Part shown: positions 1-16,481 of the stretch, in pieces | Numbering within the stretch: the stretch's first letter is position 1 | Layout: the number at the start of each line of letters is the position of its first letter | Source: Candidatus Krumholzibacteriia bacterium | Lineage (GTDB): Bacteria; Krumholzibacteriota; Krumholzibacteriia; LZORAL124-64-63 | DNA: 30,620 nt | Reading direction: 5' to 3' | Assembly: GCA_030590265.1 (NCBI GenBank) | Contig: JAUUYW010000001.1 | Span: forward strand, 1 to 30,620 | Position numbers and translations under genes: made by a program | The notes under the pieces: generated by a model | The model's database searches: none | What the model was told of the DNA's origin: nothing | Seen by the model: only the letters and a program-made list of their open reading frames with translations

Positions 1-900
1 CAACCCGAAACCGGCGGCAAACCCACCTTCCTGACGACTGGTCTCGTAACCGGCCCGCACGAACAGGATCTGGTTGACACCCAACTCGCCGCCAAAACGG
101 AAACTCTCCATGAAATCGGATGGATGATTGAAGTCGGCGCTGGTCAGCAGAGAGAGTTTGCGAGCCAGCTGCCAGGTTTTGGATGCTCCGAAAGAACCCA
201 CAGTGGGAGCCGGGAATCCCTGAAAATCACTGTTGGGAGTGGATCCATCAGGCAAGGCCGGTGGTGTGCCATCAGGCTTCAGATCGCCACCAAAATTGCG
301 AACCGAAAAACCGATGCGCATGTCGCCCAAGCCCACGAAATACAGAATTCCAAGATCAGCCAAAACTGCTTTCGTCTGGAATTCGTCCAGATTTTCCTGG
401 AAATACTTCACCGTCATACCCAAAGAGAAACGGTCGGTCATGGCCCTGGCCAAAGACGCCCCGATAAAGAACTGATTGGCATTGAAATAAGTGCCGGTGC
501 CTTCCTGATGGAATTCATCCGTGCGCAGAATATCACCCGAGCGCAGAGAACCTAGGGTCAGGCCAAACCCGTAGCTCTGTTTGCGGTGATGCCAGCTCAA
601 ATAATCGAGATCGATATCTGCGGCGTAAACACTGTGACTGGCGAAATAATTGGTCCGGCCGGGGGTTCGCATGATACCCGCCGGGTTCCAGAATACGGCA
701 GCACCATCAGTGGCGCAGGATACGTAGGCTTTGCCCATGGCCACCCCGCGGGCACCCACCGGAATGCGCAGGAACTGTCCCGAAGCCGTGCCCACATTTT
801 CTTCACCATAGAGCCTCAAGAGATCCCCGGCTGATGCTGGCCCCACCAAGACCAGGCACAACAACGTCGTCATCACGAATTTCAGGTGGCGGTTTACCAT
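1..900 (-). CDS. PorV/PorQ-family (UPF0164) outer-membrane beta-barrel, 3'-truncated by the window edge
   Basis: Not in the ORF track because the stop lies outside the window. Hand translation from ATG 900 is open to base 1 (300 codons): MVNRHLKFVMTTLLCLVLVGPASAG (signal peptide)...GTASGQFLRIPVGARGVAMGKAY...DGAAVFWNPAG...LFVRAGY, the PorV-type 'GAR..AMG.A...WNPAG' signature. The start overlaps the stop of the upstream TBDR (ATGGTAA). Confidence 0.85.
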   Translation of the reverse strand, partial: MVNRHLKFVMTTLLCLVLVGPASAGDLLRLYGEENVGTASGQFLRIPVGARGVAMGKAYVSCATDGAAVFWNPAGIMRTPGRTNYFASHSVYAADIDLDYLSWHHRKQSYGFGLTLGSLRSGDILRTDEFHQEGTGTYFNANQFFIGASLARAMTDRFSLGMTVKYFQENLDEFQTKAVLADLGILYFVGLGDMRIGFSVRNFGGDLKPDGTPPALPDGSTPNSDFQGFPAPTVGSFGASKTWQLARKLSLLTSADFNHPSDFMESFRFGGELGVNQILFVRAGYETSRQEGGFAAGFGL

Positions 901-3809
901 GAGTAGCTCACCCCCCACAACAGAGTGAAAGGATTTTCAATGTAACTGGGATCGACTACACCCTTGGCATAATCCTCACTGTCGGTGGAGGCATGATAGG
1001 GATTCTCCTGGTTTTCAGGATCATCCCAGGTTTCCACCCAGCGGGGGTTGTAGTCACCGAGTTGGTATCCATCCCCGGTGAAGGGGTTGACCCGGCGATA
1101 ATTGAGATGGTTGAAGAGATTGCGCACTTCCAGGTATATGGTGAATTTGTCCCCTCTGGCAAACTTCCAGTACTTGTTGAAGCGCAGGTTGACTGTGCTC
1201 TTGTAGGGGCCGGTGGCGCTGTTGATTCCACCACGCTGGTAATCCCGTTCGGCAACGTAGGTGTAAGGGGTGTAGCGCTGGCCCGCCTCGGCCCGGGCCA
1301 ACAGGTTAAAGCTCCAGTTCGCGGGCATGCGCCAGCCGAATATTTCGGGTTGGTCATCGTCGAAAACAGAAAAATCAAGGTTGAAACTTACAGTCCAGGG
1401 TTTGTCCCATAGAAGTGGCGTGCGGGTCAGACCACCGATGCTGGAAGTCGGTGTATATGCCTCATCGTAAGCCGCCTGCAAATAGGCTTCATCGGCATTG
1501 CTGTTTGTACCGGTAGTGCTTTGCAATTCCAAACTTCCGGAACCACTCAACCAACGGGTGGTGCGTTTGGTTACGGTCAACTCAATGCCCAGGCTTCTGG
1601 CCGAGTCGCCATTGAAATAACGCACCGGCTCGATGGTCACCGTCCCGGAGTCGTTGGGATCGGGAGTTTCTTCGGCGCCGATATCCACAGATCCCAGGCG
1701 AACGCTTTTGGCGTAGTCGTAGATATCGCGGTTGTAGAAGGTCACGCCCATGCTCCACAACCCGCCGAACTCATGCTGCACACCGGTTTCGTATTCGATG
1801 GTGACCTTGGGATCGAGATTGGGATTACCCAGCAGCTGCACTTCGGTGGCGGCCTGGGTTTCAAGTTGCGGATAAACGTAGGCGAAGCGCGGCCACTGGC
1901 TGAAGTGCCCGTAGTTGAAGAAGAACTTGTCCCGTTCGGTGACGGGAAAGCTCAGGCCCACGCGCGGTGAAAGGCGCATCTTCCAATTTCGGCCAAACAT
2001 TTCGTAGGTGTCATTGTAAAATTCATCGGCCATGTCATGGGTGATGAAAAGGTAATCATCCGGACTGGCCATGACCTTTTCAACTTCCTTGCCCGGCGCC
2101 CACCAGTCGGCCCGCAGGCCGGCGTTGACGATAAGACCACGGTAGTTGAGGGTGTCCTGAAAGTAGGCGGCACCGGTGATGGGATGGGCCAGGAAAATAT
2201 CTTCTTTGACACCCAGCTTGCCACTGGGAGGAGCCCCCAGGTTGGTCTGCAAATCCACCAGCTGCATCTCGGTAAAACTCAGATCAAAACCGGTCTTGAA
2301 TTCGTTGTTGCCCATACCCATGAAAGAGTAGGCACCCTTCAGGGTGTAACTTTCGGAATAGTGGTCGTGCCAGCGATCGGCACTGCCGGGCACCTGACCA
2401 TCGGGTTGGGAAATGAATTCGGCAGGCAGCCCCGGATTCAGGGGATCCCAACCGCTGATGGGCTCGTAAGTTCGGAAATTGTCGTTGCCGTTGACGTTGG
2501 CGTGCATGCGGTTGAAGTTTCGGCCAAAAGTCAGCTCGTACCAGGAATTGTCGTCCAGCACCTGCCGGTAATAAACCTGGGAAAGGATGTTTTCGGTGGT
2601 GAAAACCAGGTACTTGTCCATGTTGTCCATGAACGGACGGGGATAACCCTCGCCCGGCAAATCAAAGCCCTGGCTGATTCCCAACTGCCTGCTCAGATTG
2701 ATGTTCAATTTATGGTTGGGTGTCATGTGCCAGGTCCACTTGGCCAAACCGTTCCAGTTGCTTTTCTGTCGGGGAGACCAGAATTCGTTCTCGTAAACGG
2801 GGGAAGTAAGGGTGCTTTGACGGCTGTAGATAGGCAAATAACCATCCCGGATATCCATGGAACCGCTCAACAGAACGTACTGTTTACCAGGCAAATTCAA
2901 CCCTAGTGCGCGCAACCCTGCACTGATCGGATCAGGACCGCTGATGCTGCCTTTGACGATATCGATATTCTGCGGTTCACTGAAATTCGTAAAATCACGC
3001 CAGCCTCTGTGATCGTTTTTGGGCACCCGATTCCACAAATAGTCCCGTTTGAAACTGACTCGCCCCTCAACCCTGTCATTACCCTCTTTGGTGGTCACAT
3101 TGACCACCCCACTGACAGCCTGGCCATACTCCGCGTTGAAGCCACCGGTGAGCACTTCGATTTCGTTGATGATCGATGGGTCGATCTGGTAGCCGTAACC
3201 ACCACCGGCCAAAGGGTCGCTCACATTCATGCCGTCCACCACGAACATGGTATCGTCGGCCCGGCCACCGCGGATGTGAATCTCGTTGTCCTGCATGGTC
3301 ACACCCGGGGCCATGGCCACCATGTCGACCATGTTGTCCAGCGGCATGGCTTCCATCTGTTTGCTGGAGATGAAGTGGCTGCTGCCGGTTCTCTCCACTT
3401 CGATGAGGGCGCGTTCGGCCGCCACGTCAAAAGGCTCGGCCATGATGGCCTGCACTTCGAGATGGAAATCAATGTTGGCCACTTCACCGGGACCAAGTGT
3501 GACCGTCTCTGTGGCCAGGCCGTAGGAAATATAAGAGGCCCTCACGGTGTAGGTTCCCGGCGGCAAACCACGCATGATGTAGAAGCCATCGGTGAAAGAC
3601 ATGGTGCCGATGTTGGTACCGCTGATGAAGACATTGGTGTAAGGCATGGTCTCGCCGGTCTCATCGTCGAAGATGCGGCCCTTGATAGTGACAGGGGCCA
3701 CCGGAGCGTTGGCATTCATGTTGGATCGTTGGGCTGAAGCGGGCAAAGCAGTAGCCAACAGGAGGCTGAGCAGGATCCAGGTCAGGGTTTTGGCGGTGAA
3801 ATGGGTCAT
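894..3809 (-). CDS. TonB-dependent receptor with N-terminal carboxypeptidase-regulatory-like domain
   Basis: Signal peptide; IKGRIFDDETGETMPYTNV...LPPGTYTVRASYISY (CarboxypepD_reg-like); plug motifs IRGGRAD...VDG and IEVLTGGFNAEYGQAVSGVVNVTTKEG; long beta-barrel; aromatic C-terminus (VSYSW). Confidence 0.93.
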   Translation of the reverse strand: MTHFTAKTLTWILLSLLLATALPASAQRSNMNANAPVAPVTIKGRIFDDETGETMPYTNVFISGTNIGTMSFTDGFYIMRGLPPGTYTVRASYISYGLATETVTLGPGEVANIDFHLEVQAIMAEPFDVAAERALIEVERTGSSHFISSKQMEAMPLDNMVDMVAMAPGVTMQDNEIHIRGGRADDTMFVVDGMNVSDPLAGGGYGYQIDPSIINEIEVLTGGFNAEYGQAVSGVVNVTTKEGNDRVEGRVSFKRDYLWNRVPKNDHRGWRDFTNFSEPQNIDIVKGSISGPDPISAGLRALGLNLPGKQYVLLSGSMDIRDGYLPIYSRQSTLTSPVYENEFWSPRQKSNWNGLAKWTWHMTPNHKLNINLSRQLGISQGFDLPGEGYPRPFMDNMDKYLVFTTENILSQVYYRQVLDDNSWYELTFGRNFNRMHANVNGNDNFRTYEPISGWDPLNPGLPAEFISQPDGQVPGSADRWHDHYSESYTLKGAYSFMGMGNNEFKTGFDLSFTEMQLVDLQTNLGAPPSGKLGVKEDIFLAHPITGAAYFQDTLNYRGLIVNAGLRADWWAPGKEVEKVMASPDDYLFITHDMADEFYNDTYEMFGRNWKMRLSPRVGLSFPVTERDKFFFNYGHFSQWPRFAYVYPQLETQAATEVQLLGNPNLDPKVTIEYETGVQHEFGGLWSMGVTFYNRDIYDYAKSVRLGSVDIGAEETPDPNDSGTVTIEPVRYFNGDSARSLGIELTVTKRTTRWLSGSGSLELQSTTGTNSNADEAYLQAAYDEAYTPTSSIGGLTRTPLLWDKPWTVSFNLDFSVFDDDQPEIFGWRMPANWSFNLLARAEAGQRYTPYTYVAERDYQRGGINSATGPYKSTVNLRFNKYWKFARGDKFTIYLEVRNLFNHLNYRRVNPFTGDGYQLGDYNPRWVETWDDPENQENPYHASTDSEDYAKGVVDPSYIENPFTLLWGVSYSW

Positions 3810-5383
3810 CTGGGGACCACTCCCATTTCATCGGTTAAAATCTGGCCGAGGGCACTGATGACCTGGGCATTGTTGAAATACTCCAACTGCAGGCTGATGC
3901 AAACCGCGCTGGCCAGAGGATCCACGTCGCGGTGAGGGCGGCGGCTGCCAACGACCGGATCAAAGGGTCCGCTTTCGCTGGGGTTGTAACAGAATCGACA
4001 CCATTCCATGCGGTACAGCTCTTCAGTGCCTTCAAGGAGGTCCAAGCCGACTGCGGCACCGAAGCCTATCGCCCCGGTCATGTTGGGCAGATAGCTGCCT
4101 CCTCCCTGGGATTCTGCTGCTCGGTTGTAGAAATTTTGCAGGATTCCCACCGGAAGCCCTGCAGCGGCATTGATACCCAAAACAGAGGAAACAAAAACTG
4201 GTGACGGTCCATCGGATCCGGCTCCGGCCACCATTTTTGAGATCAACATCAGTCGTCCCGGTTCACGATCATCCTGGGGAATGACATATTGATGCAAGAC
4301 ACCATCCCTGGAAGAGGCAATTTGCATGAAGGAGCTGACTGTGCCGCCATCGGTCCAGAGAACCACCTCGAACTGGCGGAGATTTTCCAGCAAGACATAG
4401 GGCTTGTCGGGAAAACCAAAAACGAAATCGTATTGATCCCAGTTGCCCTCTCCAAAAAGGTCATCCAGGAGAGCGGAATAAAGGGCCTTTCCCAGCGACG
4501 ATGAATTGTCCGGAACATAAATCACTGAATTTTTTGGTGCACGCACTTCCCAGGTGTATTGGAATCGGGGATCACCCAGGGCTTCGTCCTGCACTGACAC
4601 CGTGAGTGTCCGCTGACCAGGATTAACATTCGTGACATAGACATCAAACTCATAGGACGAGACACCGGTTTCAAAAGGAACCCTCACCCAGCCCAATTCG
4701 GGGTCGGCGTCTGGATCGTCAATATCCCAGGTTAGGTCTGGGTCGCCACCTTCAACAAGAGTGTAGCGGAAGAAATCATCCAGGGTTTCAACACCATCGA
4801 GGTCGAAGGCAAAGAACCGAAAGTTGCTGGCTCCCCAGTTCCAGTAAAGGGTGTCCACAGGTGCTTCGCCCTCATAAATGATATCCCGCTGCATATTCTG
4901 GATTGGATCAAAATCCGACTGGAAACCCACCACCGGGGGATGGTTTCGCATGGGAAAAAACTGGACAATGGTATCGCTGAAGGCTCCCCGGTTGTCCCGG
5001 CAGGCCAACAGGAATGTGGCGCTGGCTTCACCACTGCTGGGATCGGGCACGAAAGTCATGGTGGTATCAGTAGCTGTGGTGGTATCCCAAGGTGCAGGCA
5101 TATCGCCATCGGTACGAATGGAAACGTAGAACTCTTCCACCCAGCCATCCCGATCGCTTCCACTCCAGTTGAAAGTGCGCATGAAATAACTGGTGGGATT
5201 CAGCTCTTCACCTTCGGGGGGCGGCTCTACAAACAACCGGGCCACCGGTGGTCGGTTCTCCAGTGAATTCGGATCAAAAGGTTCGTTGGCGGCACAACCG
5301 GCCAGCCAGATGGAGAACATGACCAGCGAGAGCATCAGGCCCAACAGCCCCGTCATCAGCGTATTTCGCTTCCAGGATCTCAT
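3806..5383 (-). CDS. Lipoprotein of unknown function (Ig/PKD-like N-terminal part, alpha/beta C-terminal part)
   Basis: Lipobox WLAG|C after a hydrophobic stretch; repeated N.PP starts and W.G.D.DG / DLDG motifs; ATGA overlaps with both neighbours. Confidence 0.8.
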   Translation of the reverse strand: MRSWKRNTLMTGLLGLMLSLVMFSIWLAGCAANEPFDPNSLENRPPVARLFVEPPPEGEELNPTSYFMRTFNWSGSDRDGWVEEFYVSIRTDGDMPAPWDTTTATDTTMTFVPDPSSGEASATFLLACRDNRGAFSDTIVQFFPMRNHPPVVGFQSDFDPIQNMQRDIIYEGEAPVDTLYWNWGASNFRFFAFDLDGVETLDDFFRYTLVEGGDPDLTWDIDDPDADPELGWVRVPFETGVSSYEFDVYVTNVNPGQRTLTVSVQDEALGDPRFQYTWEVRAPKNSVIYVPDNSSSLGKALYSALLDDLFGEGNWDQYDFVFGFPDKPYVLLENLRQFEVVLWTDGGTVSSFMQIASSRDGVLHQYVIPQDDREPGRLMLISKMVAGAGSDGPSPVFVSSVLGINAAAGLPVGILQNFYNRAAESQGGGSYLPNMTGAIGFGAAVGLDLLEGTEELYRMEWCRFCYNPSESGPFDPVVGSRRPHRDVDPLASAVCISLQLEYFNNAQVISALGQILTDEMGVVPR

Positions 5384-7377
5384 TTGATGATCACCAGCTT
5401 TCCGCGCTGCACTTCACCGGTTTCCAGATCGGTTACCGCAAAGATGTAAAGGCCGGTGGCGATGGCACGACCGGCATCAGACAAAGTATTCCAGGACGCC
5501 ATGCCCAGGGCCGGGTCGTTGTGATCAATGGTTTTAACCACCTCGCCCATGAGGGTGAAAACCTGGATCTTGCAACGAACAGGCAAACCGGTGAACCAGA
5601 TTTTTCGACCCAATTCCTGTTCACCTATGCCGGAATCGAAGAGTCCGGCCGTACGGTAGGGATTGGGAAAAACACCCACGCCCTTTCCTGAACCGGCTGC
5701 TGCAGGACCCGGCCCGGGAAAGACCAGCAGACCGTTCTCATAAAAACCGCTCTGGAATTCCGGCAATTGCTGCAATTCGTTGGGAGCGGTGAAAGACACC
5801 ACGGAATACCAGTAAGGGAAACCGTCCAGTAGATTGGTGTCCACAAATTCGCGGTGGCCATCATCGTTGAGGGGCGGCAATCCGGTGTCGTATCCACGCC
5901 CGTCGACGATGTCGTATTGGGCCACCATTTCGGCTATGTCGTAGGGATCTCCCGTGAAAGAATTTCCTTGGTACCGATAAATCCGGTAACCCTGAAAATC
6001 TTCCTGAGCCGTGGCAGTGCTGATGTGGTGCTCCGGAGAGCGCAATGGACTGTCGTTGGGCAATTCGTTGCCGCCGGCATCCAGACTGTCGCCCGGAGCC
6101 CAACTTAATATCACAGTGTCTTCAGAAAAACGGGTTTCCAGAATTGGCGAAGGAGGACCGCCGGGAATGGAAAAACCATCCTCGTAGGCAGCCTGGGCAA
6201 TTTTGCTGTTGTCCAGAAGACTGAGGGAATCGGCACCTGCAACCACGGCAAAGGTGATGCTGATGGTGTCGGCCGGGGCAAGGCTGGGAAAAGGGCCGGT
6301 GGAAATGATGCTCACCCAATTGGAGGCAATGGAGTAATTGGCCTCCTGGGTTTCTCCCACATCAAAATCACGGTTGCTCATGATTTGGTATTTACCGGGC
6401 ACGAGCTCGTCCGGATTGTCAGGATCATAGTACCAGTCGTCTCCCTGGGGAACGTGGCGAAAACCCCAGGCGTTGTACGATACGGGAGATTGTCCTGGTT
6501 CGGGTTGGGCGTTTTCGCTGGTGCCCAGGAGACGGTAGCCGATCCAGCTGGTGGCCAGGCCTTCTTCACCGTCATCATCGTGTTCGTAGGCCATCCAGAT
6601 TCCGGGGTCACCATCGGGAGTATGGGACGGATCCACAAAACCCTGGGCTCCCCAGGCTCCATTCATGTCGTCGTAATAATTCCAGCCAATGGGAGCATTC
6701 GGATCATAGGGATTCGTTTGCTCGGTGTTGCCCACGGTGGTGTCCATCCAAAGCCCCAAATAAAGGTCCTGCAATACCCATTCGCTGATTTTGATGATGC
6801 GGTAGTTCAGAATGACAAAATCATCGGCATAGGGATTGCTCCAGGCCAGGGCCCGCAAATTCACCTTGATGCCCAAAGGCTCGTGACCACCACTTTCAGG
6901 ATTGGCGTAATCGTTGAAATTGCTCTCGATGTGCTGGGTGGAAAGAGCGTCGAGGCTGAAATTATCTGCGTTTTGTCGGTTGGAAATAACCCGAACAGCG
7001 TCTTCCTGACATAATCCAATAAGATCAAACTCCCTGATCTCATCTCCTTCGCCCTGGCCATTGGCATCCTGGCTACCGGTTGAAACGCGAACTTGTCCGT
7101 CGGCAAGCACCGCGCCGACCCACAGGCCGCCACTGTAGACATGTTCAACATTGCTGTTCAGGGGATATTCACCGGAAGGGTTGCGATTGTCAAATGAGGT
7201 GCCGAGGTAACCCAGGTTTGTACCCGTCAATCCGACCAAACCAACATTGGTGTAGATGTGGGTGACAGCAGGCGGCTGCTGGCATTCTTCGTCACCAAAA
7301 GTTTGGCCGGTCCAGCTGGCGATCAGCAATGCGACCAGGAACAGAAGAGCTGCCTGGTTGGGTTTCCACATTTTCAA
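5380..7377 (-). CDS. Secreted protein with Fn3-like domain and T9SS type-A-like C-terminal sorting domain
   Basis: Signal peptide; Fn3-like VILSW...FQGYRIYR...YWYSVVSF; C-terminus VFPNPY...IQVFTLMGEVVKTI...WN...IATGLYIFAV...GKLVIIK. Start is TTG 7377 or ATG 7371. Confidence 0.85.
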   Translation of the reverse strand: MKMWKPNQAALLFLVALLIASWTGQTFGDEECQQPPAVTHIYTNVGLVGLTGTNLGYLGTSFDNRNPSGEYPLNSNVEHVYSGGLWVGAVLADGQVRVSTGSQDANGQGEGDEIREFDLIGLCQEDAVRVISNRQNADNFSLDALSTQHIESNFNDYANPESGGHEPLGIKVNLRALAWSNPYADDFVILNYRIIKISEWVLQDLYLGLWMDTTVGNTEQTNPYDPNAPIGWNYYDDMNGAWGAQGFVDPSHTPDGDPGIWMAYEHDDDGEEGLATSWIGYRLLGTSENAQPEPGQSPVSYNAWGFRHVPQGDDWYYDPDNPDELVPGKYQIMSNRDFDVGETQEANYSIASNWVSIISTGPFPSLAPADTISITFAVVAGADSLSLLDNSKIAQAAYEDGFSIPGGPPSPILETRFSEDTVILSWAPGDSLDAGGNELPNDSPLRSPEHHISTATAQEDFQGYRIYRYQGNSFTGDPYDIAEMVAQYDIVDGRGYDTGLPPLNDDGHREFVDTNLLDGFPYWYSVVSFTAPNELQQLPEFQSGFYENGLLVFPGPGPAAAGSGKGVGVFPNPYRTAGLFDSGIGEQELGRKIWFTGLPVRCKIQVFTLMGEVVKTIDHNDPALGMASWNTLSDAGRAIATGLYIFAVTDLETGEVQRGKLVIIK

Positions 7378-7487
7378 ACGCCACTCTTACCTTCAAACTG
7401 AGGACAGAAAAAATCTTCTGGATACCTCAGATAAATGGGACGTGCAGCTGAATATCCTGCCGACACGTTCCTGGGATTCGATGGAGC

Positions 7488-7508
7488 AAAAAGGGCCGAA
7501 TTCGGCCC
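7488..7508 (-). promoter_or_regulatory. Perfect 16-bp palindrome GGGCCGAATTCGGCCC (7493-7508) followed by TTTTT on the minus strand; operator or leader terminator
   Basis: Palindrome read directly. It lies ~115 nt upstream of the CTD/TBDR/PorV operon and just downstream of a weak possible promoter, TTGAAT(7543-7538)-16 nt-TATTTT(7521-7516). Confidence 0.45.
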
Positions 7509-7705
7509 CCTGTTAAAAATACCTCATGGGGGTTGAGATTCAAGAGGCAATGCCAGCCACCTTTTGCGACGATGCTGTAAATTGCCCAAAGAACATGGCT
7601 TCGGCGGTCACTGATCAGGACAATTCATGTGATTTTAACCCTTCAAGGTGCTATTCTCCATTTGCCGCAGTAAGTGGAACCTTCAATTGGTTGCTTAGGA
7701 ACTCA

Positions 7706-9214
7706 ATGCAGTTGCATCTTAAAAAAACTCTTATCCAACCCGGGCTTCCTTTCTGGCAGTTGGCCGAGCTTTTTGCCGACCAGCCCTGTGGAGCCTTACT
7801 GGACAGCGGAATGGACTCCCAAAAGCTGGGACATTTTTCATTTTTGGCCGGGCGGCCAACAGCTTTGCTGAAAGCCAAACGCCTGCCTAGGAGCGTGTCG
7901 GAAAACCTCGGGCCGAGGCAAGGCAATTCCCAGCGGGAATTCCTGATGGATTTGACCCGGTGGCAGTCTCCATCTGGTATCCGTGAAGATGAACCTTCCA
8001 ACACCCAATGGCCCGGCAATCCCTTCGCTGCTCTGCGGGATTTGCAAAAAGAGTACGGAATGATCCGAGACGGTGTTTCGGATATTCCCTTTTCCGGTGG
8101 TTTGATTGGTTATCTGGGTTATGAACTCGGCCAGGCCATAGAAATACTGCCTGACCAAGGCCTCGATGATCTGGATTTGCCCGATCTGGCTTTTATGGTG
8201 GTGGATGAAGTTTTTGTCCATGATCACACCGACGAAGCAACCCATTTGCTGGTCACCGGGCGAGGTTTGGATGATGAATCCGCCAAGCTGGACGCAGAAT
8301 TGCGGACGCGGGAATTGCTTGAGTTGCTGAGTGCCTCAACCCCATCATTGAAAGAGGGGAAGCCACAACCTGAACCCGCAACTGGTTCCAAAATACGCGC
8401 CCACTTCACCCGCGAGACCTACATGCAAGCGGTGGATCGTTGCCGTGAACATATCCTGGCCGGCGACCTCTTCGAAATCTGTTTGACCCAGCGCCTGGAA
8501 ACCGACCTCACATGCGATCCCTGGGAATTGTACCAGCGCCTGCGTGAAATCAACCCCGCCCCTTTTGCCTCCTGGTTGCACTTCGGCGATTTCCAGGTGG
8601 TGAGCGCCTCCCCGGAAAGATTTTTACGACTGGATCGCCATCGCCTTGCCGAAAGCCGCCCCATCAAAGGCACCCGCCCCCGCGGCGACAACCCCTGGGA
8701 CGACCAACGCCTGCGTGACGAGCTGCAAACTTGCGAAAAGGACCGGGCCGAAAATGTGATGATCGTCGATCTGGTGCGCAACGACATCGGAAAAGTGGCC
8801 GAGATCGGTTCGGTGGAAGTGCCCGAATTGCTGGTTGTCGAACCCTACGCCACGGTGTTCCAGCTGGTGAGCACCATCACCGGCCGACTGCGTCCCGAAT
8901 GCGATGCTTTCGACCTGGTAAAATCGTGTTTCCCCGGTGGGTCCATGACCGGCGCGCCCAAAATCGAGGCCATGAAAACCATCGACCAGATCGAACCGGT
9001 GAAGCGAGGAATTTATTCAGGTGCCATCGGTTATTTCGACCGCGGCGGAGCGCTGGATTTGAGCATTGTGATTCGCACCATTGTTTGCAAGGACGGGAAA
9101 GCCACCTTCGGTGTGGGTGGTGCCATCGTGACCGACTCAGACCCGGCGGCCGAGTATCAGGAAACCCTCGACAAAGCCAATGCCTTGATGAGGGCCTTGG
9201 GGGTGAAATCTTGA
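7706..9214 (+). CDS. pabB: Aminodeoxychorismate synthase component I
   Basis: LLDSG, PFSGGLIGYLGYE, SASPERF, PIKGT (Lys typical of PabB; TrpE has PIAGT), ENVMIVDLVRND, FPGGSMTGAPK. Start moved from 7526 to ATG 7706, which has AGGA at 7697-7700. Confidence 0.92.
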   Translation: MQLHLKKTLIQPGLPFWQLAELFADQPCGALLDSGMDSQKLGHFSFLAGRPTALLKAKRLPRSVSENLGPRQGNSQREFLMDLTRWQSPSGIREDEPSNTQWPGNPFAALRDLQKEYGMIRDGVSDIPFSGGLIGYLGYELGQAIEILPDQGLDDLDLPDLAFMVVDEVFVHDHTDEATHLLVTGRGLDDESAKLDAELRTRELLELLSASTPSLKEGKPQPEPATGSKIRAHFTRETYMQAVDRCREHILAGDLFEICLTQRLETDLTCDPWELYQRLREINPAPFASWLHFGDFQVVSASPERFLRLDRHRLAESRPIKGTRPRGDNPWDDQRLRDELQTCEKDRAENVMIVDLVRNDIGKVAEIGSVEVPELLVVEPYATVFQLVSTITGRLRPECDAFDLVKSCFPGGSMTGAPKIEAMKTIDQIEPVKRGIYSGAIGYFDRGGALDLSIVIRTIVCKDGKATFGVGGAIVTDSDPAAEYQETLDKANALMRALGVKS

Positions 9215-9795
9215 AAACCATCATATTGGATAATTACGACAGCTTTACCTACAACCTGTTTCAGTTGGTGGCGGGATTGCAGGGTGGAATTGAACCCCAG
9301 GTGTTTCGAAATGACGCGGTTTCCCTAGCCGACCTGCAAGCGCTTGAGCCGAGCCACATCATCATATCTCCCGGCCCCGGCAACCCGATGAAGCGAGATT
9401 GTATGGGTGTTTGTCGGGATGTGATTTTGGCTCTGGGGTCTGACGTTCCGATTCTGGGCGTCTGCCTGGGGCATCTGGCCATCATTGAAGCCCTGGGCGG
9501 AATGGTTTTACCCTCCCCCGAACCCAGGCATGGAAAAACCAGCCCGATTTATCATGATGGAGTGGGAGTATTTTCCGGATTGCCTGATCCCCTGGAGGCC
9601 ATGCGATATCATTCCCTGGTTGGAGTCGATAAGGAGTTTCCCGAAGAATTGGAAGTGACCGCGCGCACCGCCGAGGGATTGATAATGGGATTGCAGCACA
9701 AAGAATGGCCCTTGCAGGGGGTCCAATTTCATCCGGAATCCATTGGAACTCCATTGGGCAAGACCATGCTGGAAAAATTTTTAGGCATTTCTTAA
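9211..9795 (+). CDS. pabA: Glutamine amidotransferase component II of aminodeoxychorismate/anthranilate synthase
   Basis: LDNYDSFTYNL, SPGPG, GVCLGH, MRYHSL, QFHPES. TTG start overlaps the pabB TGA (TTGA). Confidence 0.92.
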   Translation: MKTIILDNYDSFTYNLFQLVAGLQGGIEPQVFRNDAVSLADLQALEPSHIIISPGPGNPMKRDCMGVCRDVILALGSDVPILGVCLGHLAIIEALGGMVLPSPEPRHGKTSPIYHDGVGVFSGLPDPLEAMRYHSLVGVDKEFPEELEVTARTAEGLIMGLQHKEWPLQGVQFHPESIGTPLGKTMLEKFLGIS

Positions 9796-9836
9796 CTCCA
9801 ACTCACCAACTTGATCCCCCACCCCCGGCAAGTAAG

Positions 9837-11516
9837 TTATCGGTTGTACCCGGTTGGATGCCGCTCATGCCAATCCGTCGCATCCTGGTACACCTTGGCC
9901 ACCTGCAACACCGTGGCCTCGTCATACAATTCACCCACAAAACTTATTGAAAATGGCTTGTTCTCTTCCAGAAAACCCGAAGGCAAAACAACCTGGGGAT
10001 GGCCCGTCAAGTTGGTGATCATCAGGCTGGGACCTGCCAATGAAGGTGTCACATAAACATCCACCGATTCAAAAACCTGCTTCATCATGGCCTGCAACCG
10101 GACCCGGGCGCGGTTGGCCTGAATGTACTCCACGGCTGGAATGAACTGCGCGCTGCGAAAAATATCGGGCCAATCGTTGGGGCGCTGGCGAACCAGCAAA
10201 TCATCCCGGTTGCTGAGGGTCAGTTCCTGGAAAGCCGCACCTGCTTCTGCGGTGAGAATGATGATCAGATCCCAGGGATTGGGAACTCCAAAATCATCCA
10301 GAGGGAATTCGAGGGGTACCAGCTGGGCTCCTGCCTTACGCAGAACATCCAAAGCCTGATCATCCAGTTCGCTCCCACGGTGTTCTGATTCAAAAATACT
10401 TTTCAGATAACCGATGCGCAGACCATTCAACCCTTCATCCGCTGAGAAATTGAATGGCCGGTCTACAGTGGTGGGATCCTCAGGATCAACACCCCGAATG
10501 ACCTCAAAAACCAGGGCACAATCTTCAACGTTGCGAGTGATGGGCCCGATTTTGTCCATACTCCAGCTCAGGGCCATGGCGCCGTGTCGACTGACTCTGC
10601 CGAAGCTCGGGCGCAAGCCCGTAACCCCACAACGTGTGCTGGGTGAAACGATGCTGCCAAGAGTTTCGGTGCCCAGAGCAAAAGGAACCAAACCGGCTGC
10701 CACTGATGAAGCCGAGCCGGCAGATGAACCACTGCTGCCTTCCTCAAGATTCCAGGGATTGCGGGTTTGACCACCGAACCAGACATCGTCCATGGCCAGG
10801 GCGCCAAGGGTAAGTTTGGCCACCAGCACGGCGCCGGCAGCATCGAGCTTTTTGATGACCGTGGCTGTTTCGTCAAGCACTTGATCTTTGTAGGGAGTAG
10901 CTCCCCAGGTGGTCGGATAGCCTTCCACGGCCAGCAGATCTTTGGCTCCAAAGGGAATGCCGTGCAAAGGTCCCAGGTACTGGCCCGAGTCAAGCATCTC
11001 GTCCAGCTTGCGGGCACGATTGAGAGCCCGGTCTGTGGTCAGGGAAATCACACATTCCAGTTTGGGTCCGTATTGTTCCAGGCGGTTCAGGCTGAGTTGC
11101 ACAAGTTCGGTGCAACTGACCTGTCTGGTGCGGATCAAGTATCCCAACTCATGAACTGAATAAAATGCCAAGTCGTTCAAGATATTTGGGCGTTGGACCA
11201 TGGGATCAGGAGAAAATCGGGGTCCGATATCCTCAATATATGGGGCAGGATTAGCAATTTCAGGGTCAAAGCGAAGCGCCGGTCTTTCAGGATTATCCAA
11301 TTCCATGGCCCTCAAGGCCTGGTAGTTGTGCTGCTGGTCTTCCAGAGATGGTCGCATCATCTGTCGCTCGCTGGAAGTCATTTCCAGGTCCAAAAGAACC
11401 TCGGCAGAAGCAATGGCATTTTCCGAAGGACCAGTTGCTTCATGGTCAATTTTTTCGCCGCACCCAGTGAGCAGAAGTGCAGAAAGCAACAGAATGATTA
11501 CAGGACTGGATTTCAT
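9837..11516 (-). CDS. Amidase-signature family enzyme, lipoprotein
   Basis: LHGIPFGAKDL, TRNPWN...GSSGSSAGS, LGTETLGSIVSPSTRCG (Ser-cisSer-Lys triad region); lipobox LLTG|C. Confidence 0.9.
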   Translation of the reverse strand: MKSSPVIILLLSALLLTGCGEKIDHEATGPSENAIASAEVLLDLEMTSSERQMMRPSLEDQQHNYQALRAMELDNPERPALRFDPEIANPAPYIEDIGPRFSPDPMVQRPNILNDLAFYSVHELGYLIRTRQVSCTELVQLSLNRLEQYGPKLECVISLTTDRALNRARKLDEMLDSGQYLGPLHGIPFGAKDLLAVEGYPTTWGATPYKDQVLDETATVIKKLDAAGAVLVAKLTLGALAMDDVWFGGQTRNPWNLEEGSSGSSAGSASSVAAGLVPFALGTETLGSIVSPSTRCGVTGLRPSFGRVSRHGAMALSWSMDKIGPITRNVEDCALVFEVIRGVDPEDPTTVDRPFNFSADEGLNGLRIGYLKSIFESEHRGSELDDQALDVLRKAGAQLVPLEFPLDDFGVPNPWDLIIILTAEAGAAFQELTLSNRDDLLVRQRPNDWPDIFRSAQFIPAVEYIQANRARVRLQAMMKQVFESVDVYVTPSLAGPSLMITNLTGHPQVVLPSGFLEENKPFSISFVGELYDEATVLQVAKVYQDATDWHERHPTGYNR

Positions 11517-12745
11517 GCTACTTCATGCTCCCTCCCACACCGGGGACACCGCACCTTCGGCATCTTGAACCCAGGCGGGATTTTCAAAACAGTGCCGCAC
11601 TCACACTCAATGCGATCATACCCGTCCTTCTTGTAGAAAAAATCATCCACCAGACGCGCCCGACCACGCTTGTCATTGCGCACTCCCGCAGCAGCACCAG
11701 CCTGGTCGTTGCTCACGGCAGCACGCCGGCTGCCTTCACGAGCACCAGCTCCCGACAGTGCGGATTTGGGGATGACTCCCCCGCCACCTTTGACCTCCTG
11801 GTAGCTCTTGTCATAGTCAGCAAAACCGCTGCCGCCCATGGATCGCAGAATGCGCACTCGTTCGTCGATGGGCGGATGGGTGCTGGTGCCGTTGGCTGCC
11901 ATTTTCCCATCCCGAGCCAGAGGGTTGATGATGTACATGGGTGCGGTGGCCTTGTTGGCCGAAGCCAATTTGCTGGGTGCCTGGCTGATTTTTTCCAGAG
12001 CCGAAGCAAGGCCTTCGGGATACCGGGTGAAGGAGGCCGCAGAAGCATCCGCCAGGTATTCCCGCTTGCGCGAAACCGCAAAATAAATGAGCTGGGCCAT
12101 GATCGGAGCCAGAATCATCAGGACGATGGCCACCACCATGATGATGGCCTGGGCACCACCGCCGCCTTCACCTTCACTGCGACGGGAACGCCGACCACCG
12201 CCAAACCACATGCCACGCAATCCCACTTCCGAAAGCAGCACAATGGCACCGGCCAACACCCCGGCAAAGAGCATCAGTTGAATGTCTCGGTTGCGAACGT
12301 GGGCCAGTTCGTGGGCGATGACGCCCTGCAGCTCATCGCGGTTCAGGGATTTCAGCAATCCGCTGGTGACGGCCACCGCTGCATTTTCGGGTTTGCGCCC
12401 CGTGGCAAAAGCGTTGGGAGCAGGATCGTCGATGACATAGATATCCGGCATCTTGCCAAGGCCCGCCGCCAGAGTCATCTCTTCCACCACATTGAACAAA
12501 ACCGGCAGATCGTTCTTTTCGATCTTTTTGGCCTTGGCCATGGTCAGGTAGATGTTGTCACCCTGGAACCAGGCCACCAGAGTCATGATCAGCCAGATCA
12601 CCGAGGCCAGGGCTACCCCATAGAGACCGTAACCAGGACCACCAAAATATTCCGCCAGAAAATAACCCAGCACACCCAGCAGCAAAGCCATGCCGATGAC
12701 CAGGAAAGTGGATTTGCGCCTGTTGGCTGCGATTTGTTCCCACAT
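11513..12745 (-). CDS. htpX: HtpX-like M48 zinc metalloprotease with C-terminal zinc ribbon
   Basis: PNAFATG, HELAH, SRKREYLADA, LASALEKI, THPP; C-terminal CECG...CPRC. Start moved to ATG 12745, directly after the lemA stop. Confidence 0.9.
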   Translation of the reverse strand: MWEQIAANRRKSTFLVIGMALLLGVLGYFLAEYFGGPGYGLYGVALASVIWLIMTLVAWFQGDNIYLTMAKAKKIEKNDLPVLFNVVEEMTLAAGLGKMPDIYVIDDPAPNAFATGRKPENAAVAVTSGLLKSLNRDELQGVIAHELAHVRNRDIQLMLFAGVLAGAIVLLSEVGLRGMWFGGGRRSRRSEGEGGGGAQAIIMVVAIVLMILAPIMAQLIYFAVSRKREYLADASAASFTRYPEGLASALEKISQAPSKLASANKATAPMYIINPLARDGKMAANGTSTHPPIDERVRILRSMGGSGFADYDKSYQEVKGGGGVIPKSALSGAGAREGSRRAAVSNDQAGAAAGVRNDKRGRARLVDDFFYKKDGYDRIECECGTVLKIPPGFKMPKVRCPRCGREHEVA

Positions 12746-12746
12746 A

Positions 12747-13307
12747 TTAGCTGAAGTCCACCTTGGGGGCGGCGCGTTCGGCTTCGTCTTCAATTTCGAA
12801 GAACTTTTCTGCGGTGAAATTGAACATGCCGGCGATGATATTGCCCGGGAACATCTGCACCTTGTTGTTCATGCGCATGACCGTCTCGTTGTAGAATTGA
12901 CGGGAAAAACTGATTTTGTTTTCGGTGCTGGTCAGCTCTTCCTGAAGGGCCAGAAAATTGGTGCTGGCTTTCAGGTCGGGATAGGATTCGGACACGGCAA
13001 ACAGACGGCCGAGGGCACCGGTCAGTCCGGCTTCGGCAGCCATGCGTTGGTCCATGTTACCACCGGCGCCGGAAATGGCGGCACGGGCCTGGGTCACCGC
13101 TTCGAGGGTCTCGCGTTCGTGGTTCATGTAGCCTTTGACCGTCTCCAACAGGTTGGGGATCAGATCAAAACGACGCTTGAGCTGCACATCCACCTGGGCC
13201 CAGGCTTCTTTGACCTGGTTGCGCAGGCCCACCAATCCATTGTAAATACCCATCACCCAAAGAGCGACCGCGACGATCAAACCGAGCAGTACCAGAGCAA
13301 AAATCAT
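12747..13307 (-). CDS. lemA: LemA family protein
   Basis: Single N-terminal TM; [49 protein letters not shown]. Start moved to ATG 13307 (AAGG upstream). Confidence 0.95.
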
Positions 13308-15696: not shown

Positions 15697-16356
15697 TTAC
15701 CGGTACATGGTCTTCAAGCTGTCCCAGTTGGTCTCTTCGGTGCTAACGGCAGGATCACAAGTGTAACCACCAAGCACGAAAGGAGCATCCGAAGAAGCAT
15801 TATCCTCAGCGCCGTCCCAGGCGTTGGCTCCACTGAAAGTCCAGTCGTCGAGGATGAAAATATAACCAGGACCAGTTTGGGTCATGCGCTTGGCCCAACC
15901 ATCGAGGTATTCCCAAGGCTCGCCGTTGCCGTCGACATCTCTGTCACCAAAATAGTCCACAACCACAGGCTCATCGCCACCGATGTAGAACAGTTCAATA
16001 GCATCATCGCCGTTGATGGCCATGCTGTAGCCGTCACCGATGTAGTCGGTATCAAAACCAAACCAATCGAAGAAGGCAGTGGGGTTGGAGGAGTCTTCAT
16101 GGCTCAGGTAGAAAGTTGTGCCGGCAGCAATAAAATCGGCGGGGAAGACGTGCTCGACACCATCAGAGCCACCACCGTTGTTGGCGGAACCGACACCGTA
16201 AACGGACAGATCGGCGATGTCATCACACGCATAGAGCTCGATACCCTTGGGAACGCCACCGGGCAAAGTAGCATCGTAAACGCCAGTGATAACCAGTTGG
16301 GCAGCAGCAGGGCTGACCATGAGAACAAGGGCGAAAGTCAGGAGCAATTTTTTCAT
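15697..16356 (-). CDS. Secreted lamin-tail-domain-like protein with short C-terminal WxxxKxxYR motif
   Basis: Signal peptide MKKLLLTFALVLMVSPAAA; LTD-like KGIELY...DLSVY...NGDDAIELF...VDYFG; ends STEETNWDSLKTMYR. Start moved to ATG 16356 (GGAG upstream). Confidence 0.8.
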   Translation of the reverse strand: MKKLLLTFALVLMVSPAAAQLVITGVYDATLPGGVPKGIELYACDDIADLSVYGVGSANNGGGSDGVEHVFPADFIAAGTTFYLSHEDSSNPTAFFDWFGFDTDYIGDGYSMAINGDDAIELFYIGGDEPVVVDYFGDRDVDGNGEPWEYLDGWAKRMTQTGPGYIFILDDWTFSGANAWDGAEDNASSDAPFVLGGYTCDPAVSTEETNWDSLKTMYR

Positions 16357-16481
16357 GAGATTCTCCACATTTGGAAATGGCCACAAAGGGCCGACTCTTT
16401 GGTGTCAACACCATCACCACGCTTCCAAGAGCTTGAGCGCAATCCAAGCGCTGGAGCGAAAATGGTAAGATTACTGGAAAG

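Follow-up and report, generated by a model that had tools for sequence, protein, structure and literature searches.

We analysed a 30,620-nucleotide stretch of DNA (the window) from a Candidatus Krumholzibacteriia bacterium (GenBank assembly GCA_030590265.1, contig JAUUYW010000001.1), which encodes a small secreted protein of 219 amino acids (aa) whose last ~16 residues, a linker and a short helix, recur as a C-terminal tail on many other proteins. The genome to which the window belongs (G000 in our numbering, with the window as contig C84) consists of 585 contigs totalling 3.69 Mb and is 81% complete. The gene lies on the minus strand, where an open frame spans 15697..16386; the likely start is the Met of MKKLLL at 16356, so that the gene called from the open reading frame (ORF) listing and the sequence occupies 15697..16356, and its product ends in ...GGYTCDPAVSTEETNWDSLKTMYR, followed by a TAA stop codon at 15697-15699. 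From N- to C-terminus, with all coordinates on the minus strand, the protein comprises a Sec-type signal peptide of residues 1-20 (MKKLLLTFALVLMVSPAAAQ; 16297..16356), of which residues 2-13 are helical in the structural model and after which the mature chain probably begins with Gln; a folded body of residues 21-200 (15757..16296), predicted to be an Ig-like beta-sandwich of the lamin-tail-domain type; a linker of residues 201-209 (D-P-A-V-S-T-E-E-T; 15730..15756), defined by model confidence and tail composition, which holds a semi-conserved V-[AS]-T-E box; and a tail core of residues 210-219 (N-W-D-S-L-K-T-M-Y-R; 15700..15729), modelled as a short amphipathic helix, the C-terminal ...VSTEETNWDSLKTMYR, in which K215 is invariant in the homologue alignment. 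The neighbours of the gene are housekeeping in character (an extracytoplasmic function sigma factor, a D-serine-dehydratase-like enzyme and a thioesterase).

Structure prediction separates the body clearly from the tail. An AlphaFold2 model computed from a 114-sequence alignment has a mean predicted local distance difference test score (pLDDT) of 86, with 10-residue blocks of the body mostly at 88-96 and at 74 at the lowest, and the top Foldseek matches of the body are the Ig-fold domains of lamins A/C and B1 (probability 0.96-1.0), in line with precomputed PF00932 matches on two homologues. Over residues 201-219 the pLDDT drops to ~55, and to below 50 at positions 205-208. A C-terminal helix at residues 211-218 nevertheless appears both in this model and in a second, very poor one computed from seven sequences (pLDDT 42), so that the models depict the tail as a flexible linker followed by an amphipathic helix of two to three turns that is not packed on its cargo.

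The protein itself is narrowly distributed at the level of orthologues, which six of the seven other genomes searched in its genus contain and which our searches of other genera did not return; a metagenomic protein collection yielded 894 homologues. K215 is invariant across the 114 aligned homologues, one of only 18 invariant columns in the alignment. The strict tail stands at the end of 90 of the 120 best homologues, and most of the remaining 30 end in variants such as ...WGxIKAMFDN, ...SLSAVKALFQ or ...KALYNN; longer homologues lack the tail. Neither the 219-aa protein nor its last 26 residues alone matched any Pfam or NCBIfam model.

The original prediction had described the ending as a WxxxKxxYR tail that might act as a second, lineage-specific C-terminal sorting signal. 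To quantify it, we took all ORFs of at least 60 aa in the genome, defined by longest frame without a gene finder (17,673 crude ORFs), and found the pattern W-x3-K-x2-[YF]-[RK] exactly at the C-terminus of 24 of them against 0.084 expected, compared with 8 internal occurrences (one of these 6 residues from the end) against 12.8 expected anywhere. The motif is thus real and strictly C-terminal, with internal copies at or below chance. As a definition, the predicted pattern recovers these 24 tails and is otherwise too narrow, as a profile built from them identified further members with F, L or M at the aromatic position and the last residues also vary; a relaxed pattern raises the count to ~52 ORFs, and most profile matches in this genome at E<=0.1 end exactly at the stop codon, with a few others ending 1-6 residues earlier.

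The consensus of these tails within the genome is V-A-T-E-x-x-[ST]-[WF]-[DG]-x-[LVI]-K-[SA]-[LM]-Y-R. Its signature positions across the 24 strict tails are an aromatic or hydrophobic residue at -9, K at -5 and Y or F at -2, and the upstream box is more loosely kept (V in 18/24, T in 14/24, E in 12/24). Across relatives, a broader core of [ST]-[WFLM]-[GD]-x-[ILV]-K-[SA]-[LM]-[YF] is followed by 0-5 variable residues: the terminal YR is replaced by YNN, FDN, FQ, YE, INE and others, and other families of the phylum show endings such as SWGAIKSLYE, ...KSLINE and ...KALKEKE. Because the last 0-5 residues vary so freely, the free carboxylate of the tail is probably not what is read. The helical hydrophobic moment of the tail (0.56) exceeds that of C-terminal 10-mers generally (0.31 +/- 0.16), and the tail is more amphipathic as a helix than as a strand (0.56 vs. 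0.40).

Codon usage within the tails is freely synonymous (Lys is encoded by AAG 34 times and AAA 12 times, and five Arg codons and both Ser codon families are in use), and what is conserved is therefore the peptide, as opposed to an element in the DNA or RNA. The tail genes also use all three stop codons and the DNA downstream of them is unconserved, which together with the free codons rules out a repeat at the DNA or RNA level as the cause of tail conservation. We found no curated model in Pfam, NCBIfam or the PDB and no paper that describes the tail: searching its profile against PDB sequences returned a single weak and irrelevant match, and literature searches with motif strings, phylum names, PorU2 or PorU paralogues returned nothing relevant.

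The tail is carried independently of cargo fold. When the tails were trimmed from the 52 tail proteins of the genome, the remaining bodies fell into 38 families with no BLAST relationship to one another; Pfam recognised GEVED, C-type lectin, RskA_C, lamin-tail and beta-helix/PMP-repeat domains on some and nothing on most. Signal-peptide-like N-termini were called, by a crude heuristic, on 41/52 tail proteins compared with 24% of all genes in the genome, and almost all of the 11 without one are cut by contig ends or have mis-called starts. These figures agree with the predicted tag on many unrelated signal-peptide proteins, with a putative role in export or anchoring.

As predicted, the tail also coexists with the C-terminal domain (CTD) of a type IX secretion system (T9SS) in the same genome, and at the level of single proteins the two exclude one another. 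A hidden Markov model built from the genome's own CTDs identified 127 CTD proteins, and none of the 52 tail proteins carries a CTD. Tail proteins are shorter (median 211 aa vs. 577 aa for CTD proteins). The beta-helix tail protein has CTD-bearing paralogues, and contig C205 holds a cluster of small, mutually related proteins that includes both tail- and CTD-ending ORFs, from which we conclude that tail and CTD are alternative endings for similar passengers. A crude prediction of the cleavage site puts Gln first in the mature chain in ~21% of tail proteins, 19% of CTD proteins and 9% of other candidates, which recalls the Bacteroidetes "Q-rule" of pyroglutamate N-termini.

We next surveyed the tail across genomes, using a 22-column profile trained on one genus that undercounts variant endings. 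All 151 sampled genomes of the window's phylum contain the tail, with 1 to 58 or more matches each, and it ends thousands of proteins across the phylum. At E<=1e-4, it was found in 27/41 genomes from the phylum of a metagenome-assembled genome (MAG) labelled Eisenbacteria and in 0/61 genomes from the phylum of a MAG labelled Zixibacteria. Profiling against the translocon protein SprA, which had been proposed as a check, gave a divided answer: SprA occurs in all 101 genomes searched in the window's phylum and in a further five, of which four are rich in tails and the fifth has one weak tail match; it is equally present in all 61 tail-less Zixibacteria, so that a T9SS is not sufficient for the tail.

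When a degenerate DNA pattern was run over all species genomes, the matches listed came mostly from MAGs labelled Eisenbacteria, Krumholzibacteriota or Latescibacterota, the three lineages in which the original prediction had placed such tails, consistent with a lineage-restricted tag; matches in MAGs labelled Polyangiaceae, Phycisphaera and Elusimicrobia had no profile matches and were set aside as chance. The ESM Atlas assigns Krumholzibacteriota to two tail families, on which ground we take the window's phylum to be Krumholzibacteriota. NCBI labels are unreliable for this phylum: judging from identical match coordinates, MAGs labelled "uncultured Fibrobacteraceae", "Candidatus Latescibacterota" or "Candidatus Krumholzibacteriota" (Zod_Metabat.682), as well as a "bacterium" from a Geodia sponge, fall within a single GTDB phylum, that of the window, and labels were inconsistent at loci L040 (G159=G100), L045 (G158=G113), L035 (G156=G080) and L065 (G165=G012). 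Individual cargo genes turn over fast, given that the 219-aa protein is confined to its genus and another tail protein was not found even within its own.

To identify possible partners of the tail, we clustered the genes around 80 tail loci from ~20 genomes together with those of the window's genome (~130 neighbourhoods in all). Two non-generic neighbour families recurred, in six genomes each, namely a C25-like peptidase of ~1,250-1,470 aa with its own CTD and a small secreted dockerin-like protein. Both flank tandem tail proteins of ~190 aa, and these tandem arrays in the C25-like operon constitute the largest and most widely retained tail family. In the window's genome, the operon lies on contig C432, where neighbour clustering delimits the small dockerin-like gene (4293-4934) and two tail genes (5154-5732 and 6184-6810), and Pfam and NCBIfam models identify the C25-like gene (6999-11423) and, after it, a SpoIID/LytB-domain gene (11440-12807). 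In the window's own family (f1, loci L260-L279), the C25-like gene is regularly followed by such a SpoIID/LytB-domain gene, of ~450-470 aa, while other families have a gene of ~236 aa or of ~305-318 aa in that position. Clustering neighbours within the window's genome alone had returned only T9SS-CTD proteins as a recurrent class, near 15/52 tail genes against 5.9 +/- 2.3 expected, a modest excess attributable to the clustering of secretome genes; on contig C288, CTD genes on both sides of a tail gene were considered as a conserved pairing with it, an idea discarded because that tail protein was not found in seven other genomes of its genus.

The C25-like protein combines Peptidase_C25, Propeptide_C25 and FlgD_ig/T9SS CTD domains, with a PF01364 match at 168-179 bits. 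Its scores of 146-184 bits against the NCBIfam PorU model NF033707 (cut-off 420) and 66-107 bits against the "PorU2" model NF052324 (cut-off 450), together with an identity of 21% to the true PorU of the genome, mark it by sequence as a relative of PorU and not as PorU itself. H987 and C1028 line up with PorU's own His and Cys and reach at least 95% conservation across 39 orthologues, so that the peptidase is predicted to be catalytically intact.

The gene is also close to single-copy and broadly retained. A C25-like match at E<=1e-40 is present in 91/101 Krumholzibacteriota genomes, once in 89 and twice in 2, and a match at E<=1e-22 in 37/41 genomes of the Eisenbacteria-labelled phylum, whereas the best match in the 61 Zixibacteria stood at 4.5e-19 (65 bits), no higher than the level that PorU itself reaches. 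In 20-kb intervals centred on the C25-like gene in 40 genomes from most families of the window's phylum, tail genes were found in 38/40, mostly as a same-strand array with the usual order of small dockerin-like gene, 1-4 tail genes and C25-like gene; under a generous null of a 0.33 chance per interval this corresponds to P ~2e-16, a value to be read with the non-independence of related genomes in mind. The few tails that "tail-poor" genomes retain belong to the array, which is present too in G023, G160, G161, G164, G167, G168 and G169. This near-single-copy PorU paralogue is, on the strength of these gene associations, a new candidate partner of the tail.

The small dockerin-like proteins (~205-260 aa) are secreted and end in Cys-Pro or a lone Cys. 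They had no match in Pfam, and their C-termini contain two dockerin-type EF-hand repeats (...SPDLNGD..VNLSD...F... and ...D.N.D...NLSD...). Their gene comes first in the operon at 26 of 40 loci (L260-L299), and the window's genome contains further such genes at C567:9080-9742 and C571:17379-18008. Cohesin identity was considered for the ~190-aa tail family of the operon and dropped, being unsupported by Pfam or PDB profiles. A different arrangement was observed in family f2, where genome G071 contains two tandem, near-identical C25-type genes of ~1,400 aa with CTDs (C85:55866-62712, locus L305), which come after a gene of 327 aa and one for a CTD protein of 1,104 aa and have no tail genes nearby.

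Alongside the tail, T9SS components are encoded in the window's genome, namely SprA, PorU paired with a PorV, and three more PorV-like barrels, with the true PorU scoring 452 bits to NF033707 and adjoining a PorV-like gene. A PorV-family barrel had been put forward as receptor for the tail, a proposal not supported by gene order, as none of the four PorV-like genes is linked to a tail gene: one lies beside PorU, two directly follow CTD-protein genes, and one (window 1-918) follows a TonB-receptor-like gene. Those on contigs C14 (1770-4367) and C295 (950-2671) are each directly downstream of a CTD-protein gene, an arrangement like that of the PorU-PorV pair on C87, and may be cargo-specific shuttles. 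The fourth belongs to an apparent minus-strand operon at window 1-7377, made up of a T9SS cargo gene whose translation ends in a type A CTD (...GLYIFAVTDLETGEVQRGKLVIIK; 5380..7377), a gene for an unknown 525-aa protein, identified as the ORF in between (3806-5383), a gene for a TonB-receptor-like protein with CarboxypepD_reg and Plug domains (894-3809) and, directly after it, the FadL-like PorV-family outer-membrane barrel paralogue (1..918), which is cut by the contig end and scores 50 bits to NF033710, below its cut-off. The pairing of a TonB-type receptor with a PorV-like shuttle is unusual. Elsewhere in the window, a plus-strand gene at 24340-24954 encodes the genome's only YkuD-domain protein, which has a hydrophilic N-terminus without a signal peptide and is probably cytoplasmic.

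How, then, might the tail work? The interpretation that we tentatively favour, holding it to be possible at somewhat under an even chance, is that the last ~16 residues are a portable C-terminal sorting or anchoring tag recognised by the dedicated PorU paralogue. In Krumholzibacteriota and in allied phyla that have a T9SS, such a tag would mark small, Sec-exported binding proteins, mostly of a single domain, and would work in parallel with the 80-residue CTD of large T9SS proteins. Its reader would be the C25 cysteine peptidase of ~1,400 aa, which has a propeptide, a conserved His/Cys dyad and a T9SS CTD of its own; by analogy with PorU and with the sortases of Gram-positive pili, this enzyme could cut in or near the linker and then attach or polymerise the cargo on the cell surface. 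We infer recognition by the enzyme from synteny and a coarse phylogenetic profile, and likewise the cleavage, the surface location and the crossing of the outer membrane by tail proteins. The tail is proposed as recognition element because the order of the operon, with small tagged genes followed by the gene of a dedicated transpeptidase-family enzyme, parallels Gram-positive pilus operons, and a sortase role of PorU itself has been published (PMC12365241). The more ambitious version, in which a second, short-signal branch linked to the type IX system uses the paralogue to anchor covalently or polymerise ~50 tagged proteins per genome on the surface, we consider rather doubtful.

Several observations weigh against recognition by the PorU paralogue. 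The gene for the 219-aa protein is solitary and shares with the enzyme's operon nothing beyond the tail; most tail genes (~50 per genome) lie far from the C25-like gene, whose product might therefore act on nothing but the family encoded in the operon. Counted by independent lineages, the phylum-level profile comes to about three. Fisher's test finds no significant association in the Eisenbacteria-labelled sample (26/11/1/3, p = 0.11), and the C25-like gene lies 7-12 kb from a listed tail gene in only 5/37 genomes of that phylum. It is not adjacent to tails in G157, and family f2 of the window's phylum has tails with only a divergent C25 gene and no adjoining tail genes. On mechanistic grounds, a CTD-bearing enzyme should act outside the outer membrane, which tail proteins have no known way across, and cleavage upstream of the helix would discard the invariant Lys, whose conservation would then be explicable by recognition alone.

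The main rival is non-covalent docking, in which the helix would fit into a groove on some receptor at the surface or in the envelope, much as dockerins, encapsulation peptides and pilus donor elements do. The ~190-aa proteins of the operon or the dockerin-like product of its first gene would be the receptor candidates, and the C25-like peptidase would merely mature the operon's proteins, as gingipain does type V pilins. This reading accommodates the linker with its detached amphipathic helix and the freely varying last residues, which argue that the carboxylate itself is unread, and it draws as well on the concentration of the largest and most widely retained tail family in tandem operon arrays, on the two EF-hand repeats at the end of the first gene product and on a weak Atlas lead to cohesin for the operon tail family. 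Yet the cohesin fold is without Pfam or PDB support, no receptor has been identified, and simple docking does not need the semi-conserved V-x-T-E box upstream of the helix; we regard docking as unlikely, if a serious contender. A minimal T9SS export signal, read directly by the translocon or a PorV-family shuttle and replacing the 80-residue CTD on small cargo, appears quite improbable. SprA does occur in every multi-tail genome searched (101/101 in the phylum, and others), the window's genome does have PorU, PorV and three extra PorV-like paralogues, and tail and CTD are never on the same protein; against this, all 61 Zixibacteria have SprA and none the tail, the PorV-like paralogues adjoin genes for CTD proteins or TonB-type receptors and never tail genes, and a 10-residue helix is unlike an Ig-like CTD and matches no CTD model.

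Two further explanations were weighed. As an in-plane membrane anchor or periplasmic retention tag resembling the C-terminal helix of PBP5, the tail would place its W/L/Y face, with flanking K/R, in the membrane interface. Its high helical hydrophobic moment and its W, Y, K and R, which are typical interfacial residues, speak for such a role, which we nonetheless consider very improbable: only ~9 residues are helical, a Lys invariant in 114 homologues exceeds what lipid binding needs, and the modules of the cargo (lectin, lamin-tail, PPC/GBD-like and beta-helix) are typical of surface proteins and shared with CTD-bearing paralogues. Finally, Escherichia coli Lpp ends in ...K-Y-R-K, and the K-x-x-Y-R of the tail bears a superficial likeness to it, which raises Lpp-like covalent attachment to peptidoglycan by an L,D-transpeptidase through the conserved Lys. 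We rejected this, its probability being close to nil, on the distribution of YkuD domains, which occur in only 50/101 genomes of a phylum in which all have the tail and are lacking from G030 (a single contig, 96% complete) despite its 40 tails, and because the only YkuD protein of the window's genome lacks a signal peptide.

Collectively, these findings make it likely that the tail is an undescribed address label with a candidate reading enzyme. If so, one short motif would annotate thousands of "hypothetical" secreted proteins and define the surface proteome of several uncultured phyla that are common in sediments, soils and sponges, and the conserved operon with its seemingly intact PorU paralogue would turn an orphan signal into a testable enzyme-substrate pair. 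Should recognition by the paralogue hold, the T9SS sortase family would have branched out to a minimal signal of quite another kind, and the tag, at 16 residues, would offer a useful portable tool for surface display. On the more ambitious version, the operon core of dockerin-ended protein, tandem tagged subunits and enzyme would represent, in a diderm, the counterpart of pili built and scaffoldins anchored by sortases.

To place the tail among known systems, we compared it with the attribute list that Haft gives for small C-terminal sorting signals (bioRxiv 10.1101/2023.06.07.544157). It shares six of these attributes, namely its position, its many copies per genome, its signature residues, the signal peptides of its carriers, the lack of relationship among those carriers, and homologues that bear other anchors, but it lacks a strongly hydrophobic transmembrane segment, having only 9-10 amphipathic residues after a linker, and it lacks a cluster of 2-5 basic residues, having a single terminal R that relatives replace with Q, E, N, NN or DN. 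For the attribute of a cognate enzyme, the C25-like gene has tail genes within 20 kb in 38/40 genomes and tracks the tail across three phyla, with the Eisenbacteria-labelled test at p = 0.11. Unlike LPXTG/sortase, PEP-CTERM/exosortase, GlyGly-CTERM/rhombosortase and MYXO-CTERM/myxosortase, the tail has as its candidate enzyme a secreted C25 peptidase and not an intramembrane protease.

The tail is not the beta-signal of outer-membrane beta-barrels, as its terminal residue is R, Q, N or E instead of an aromatic and its body here is a soluble Ig-like sandwich, and it is not an Lpp-type signal, since an exported YkuD L,D-transpeptidase is not present wherever the tail is. With terminal docking peptides (dockerins, and the targeting peptides of microcompartments and encapsulins) it shares the plan of a folded cargo joined through a flexible linker to a short amphipathic helix at its terminus, the helix being common to unrelated cargo; those peptides, however, act in the cytoplasm or are calcium-binding modules of 60-70 residues, while tail cargo is exported. 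The likeness to Gram-positive pilus operons lies in 1-4 small tandem tagged genes followed on the same strand by the gene of a dedicated transpeptidase-family enzyme, and the conserved Lys within the W-x3-...-Y motif presumably recalls the pilin motif. Here the host is a diderm, the enzyme comes from an unrelated family, C25 and not C60, there is neither LPXTG nor a hydrophobic anchor, and polymerisation is proposed by analogy.

The closest comparison is with the T9SS itself. The tail is no T9SS CTD of the kind that PorU processes (type A, TIGR04183/PF18962): it is 16 residues of linker and helix instead of an Ig-like domain of 70-100 residues, it has no match to the TIGR04183/PF18962 or TIGR04131 models, its cargo is small (median 211 vs. 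577 aa), and it is absent from the sampled T9SS-positive Zixibacteria, while its candidate enzyme falls far below the cut-offs of both PorU and PorU2. Like the CTD, it is a C-terminal tag on Sec-exported proteins of the FCB group; the two tags occur side by side in these genomes and end passengers of the same kinds, and the candidate reader of the tail, a PorU paralogue, belongs to the same C25 peptidase family.

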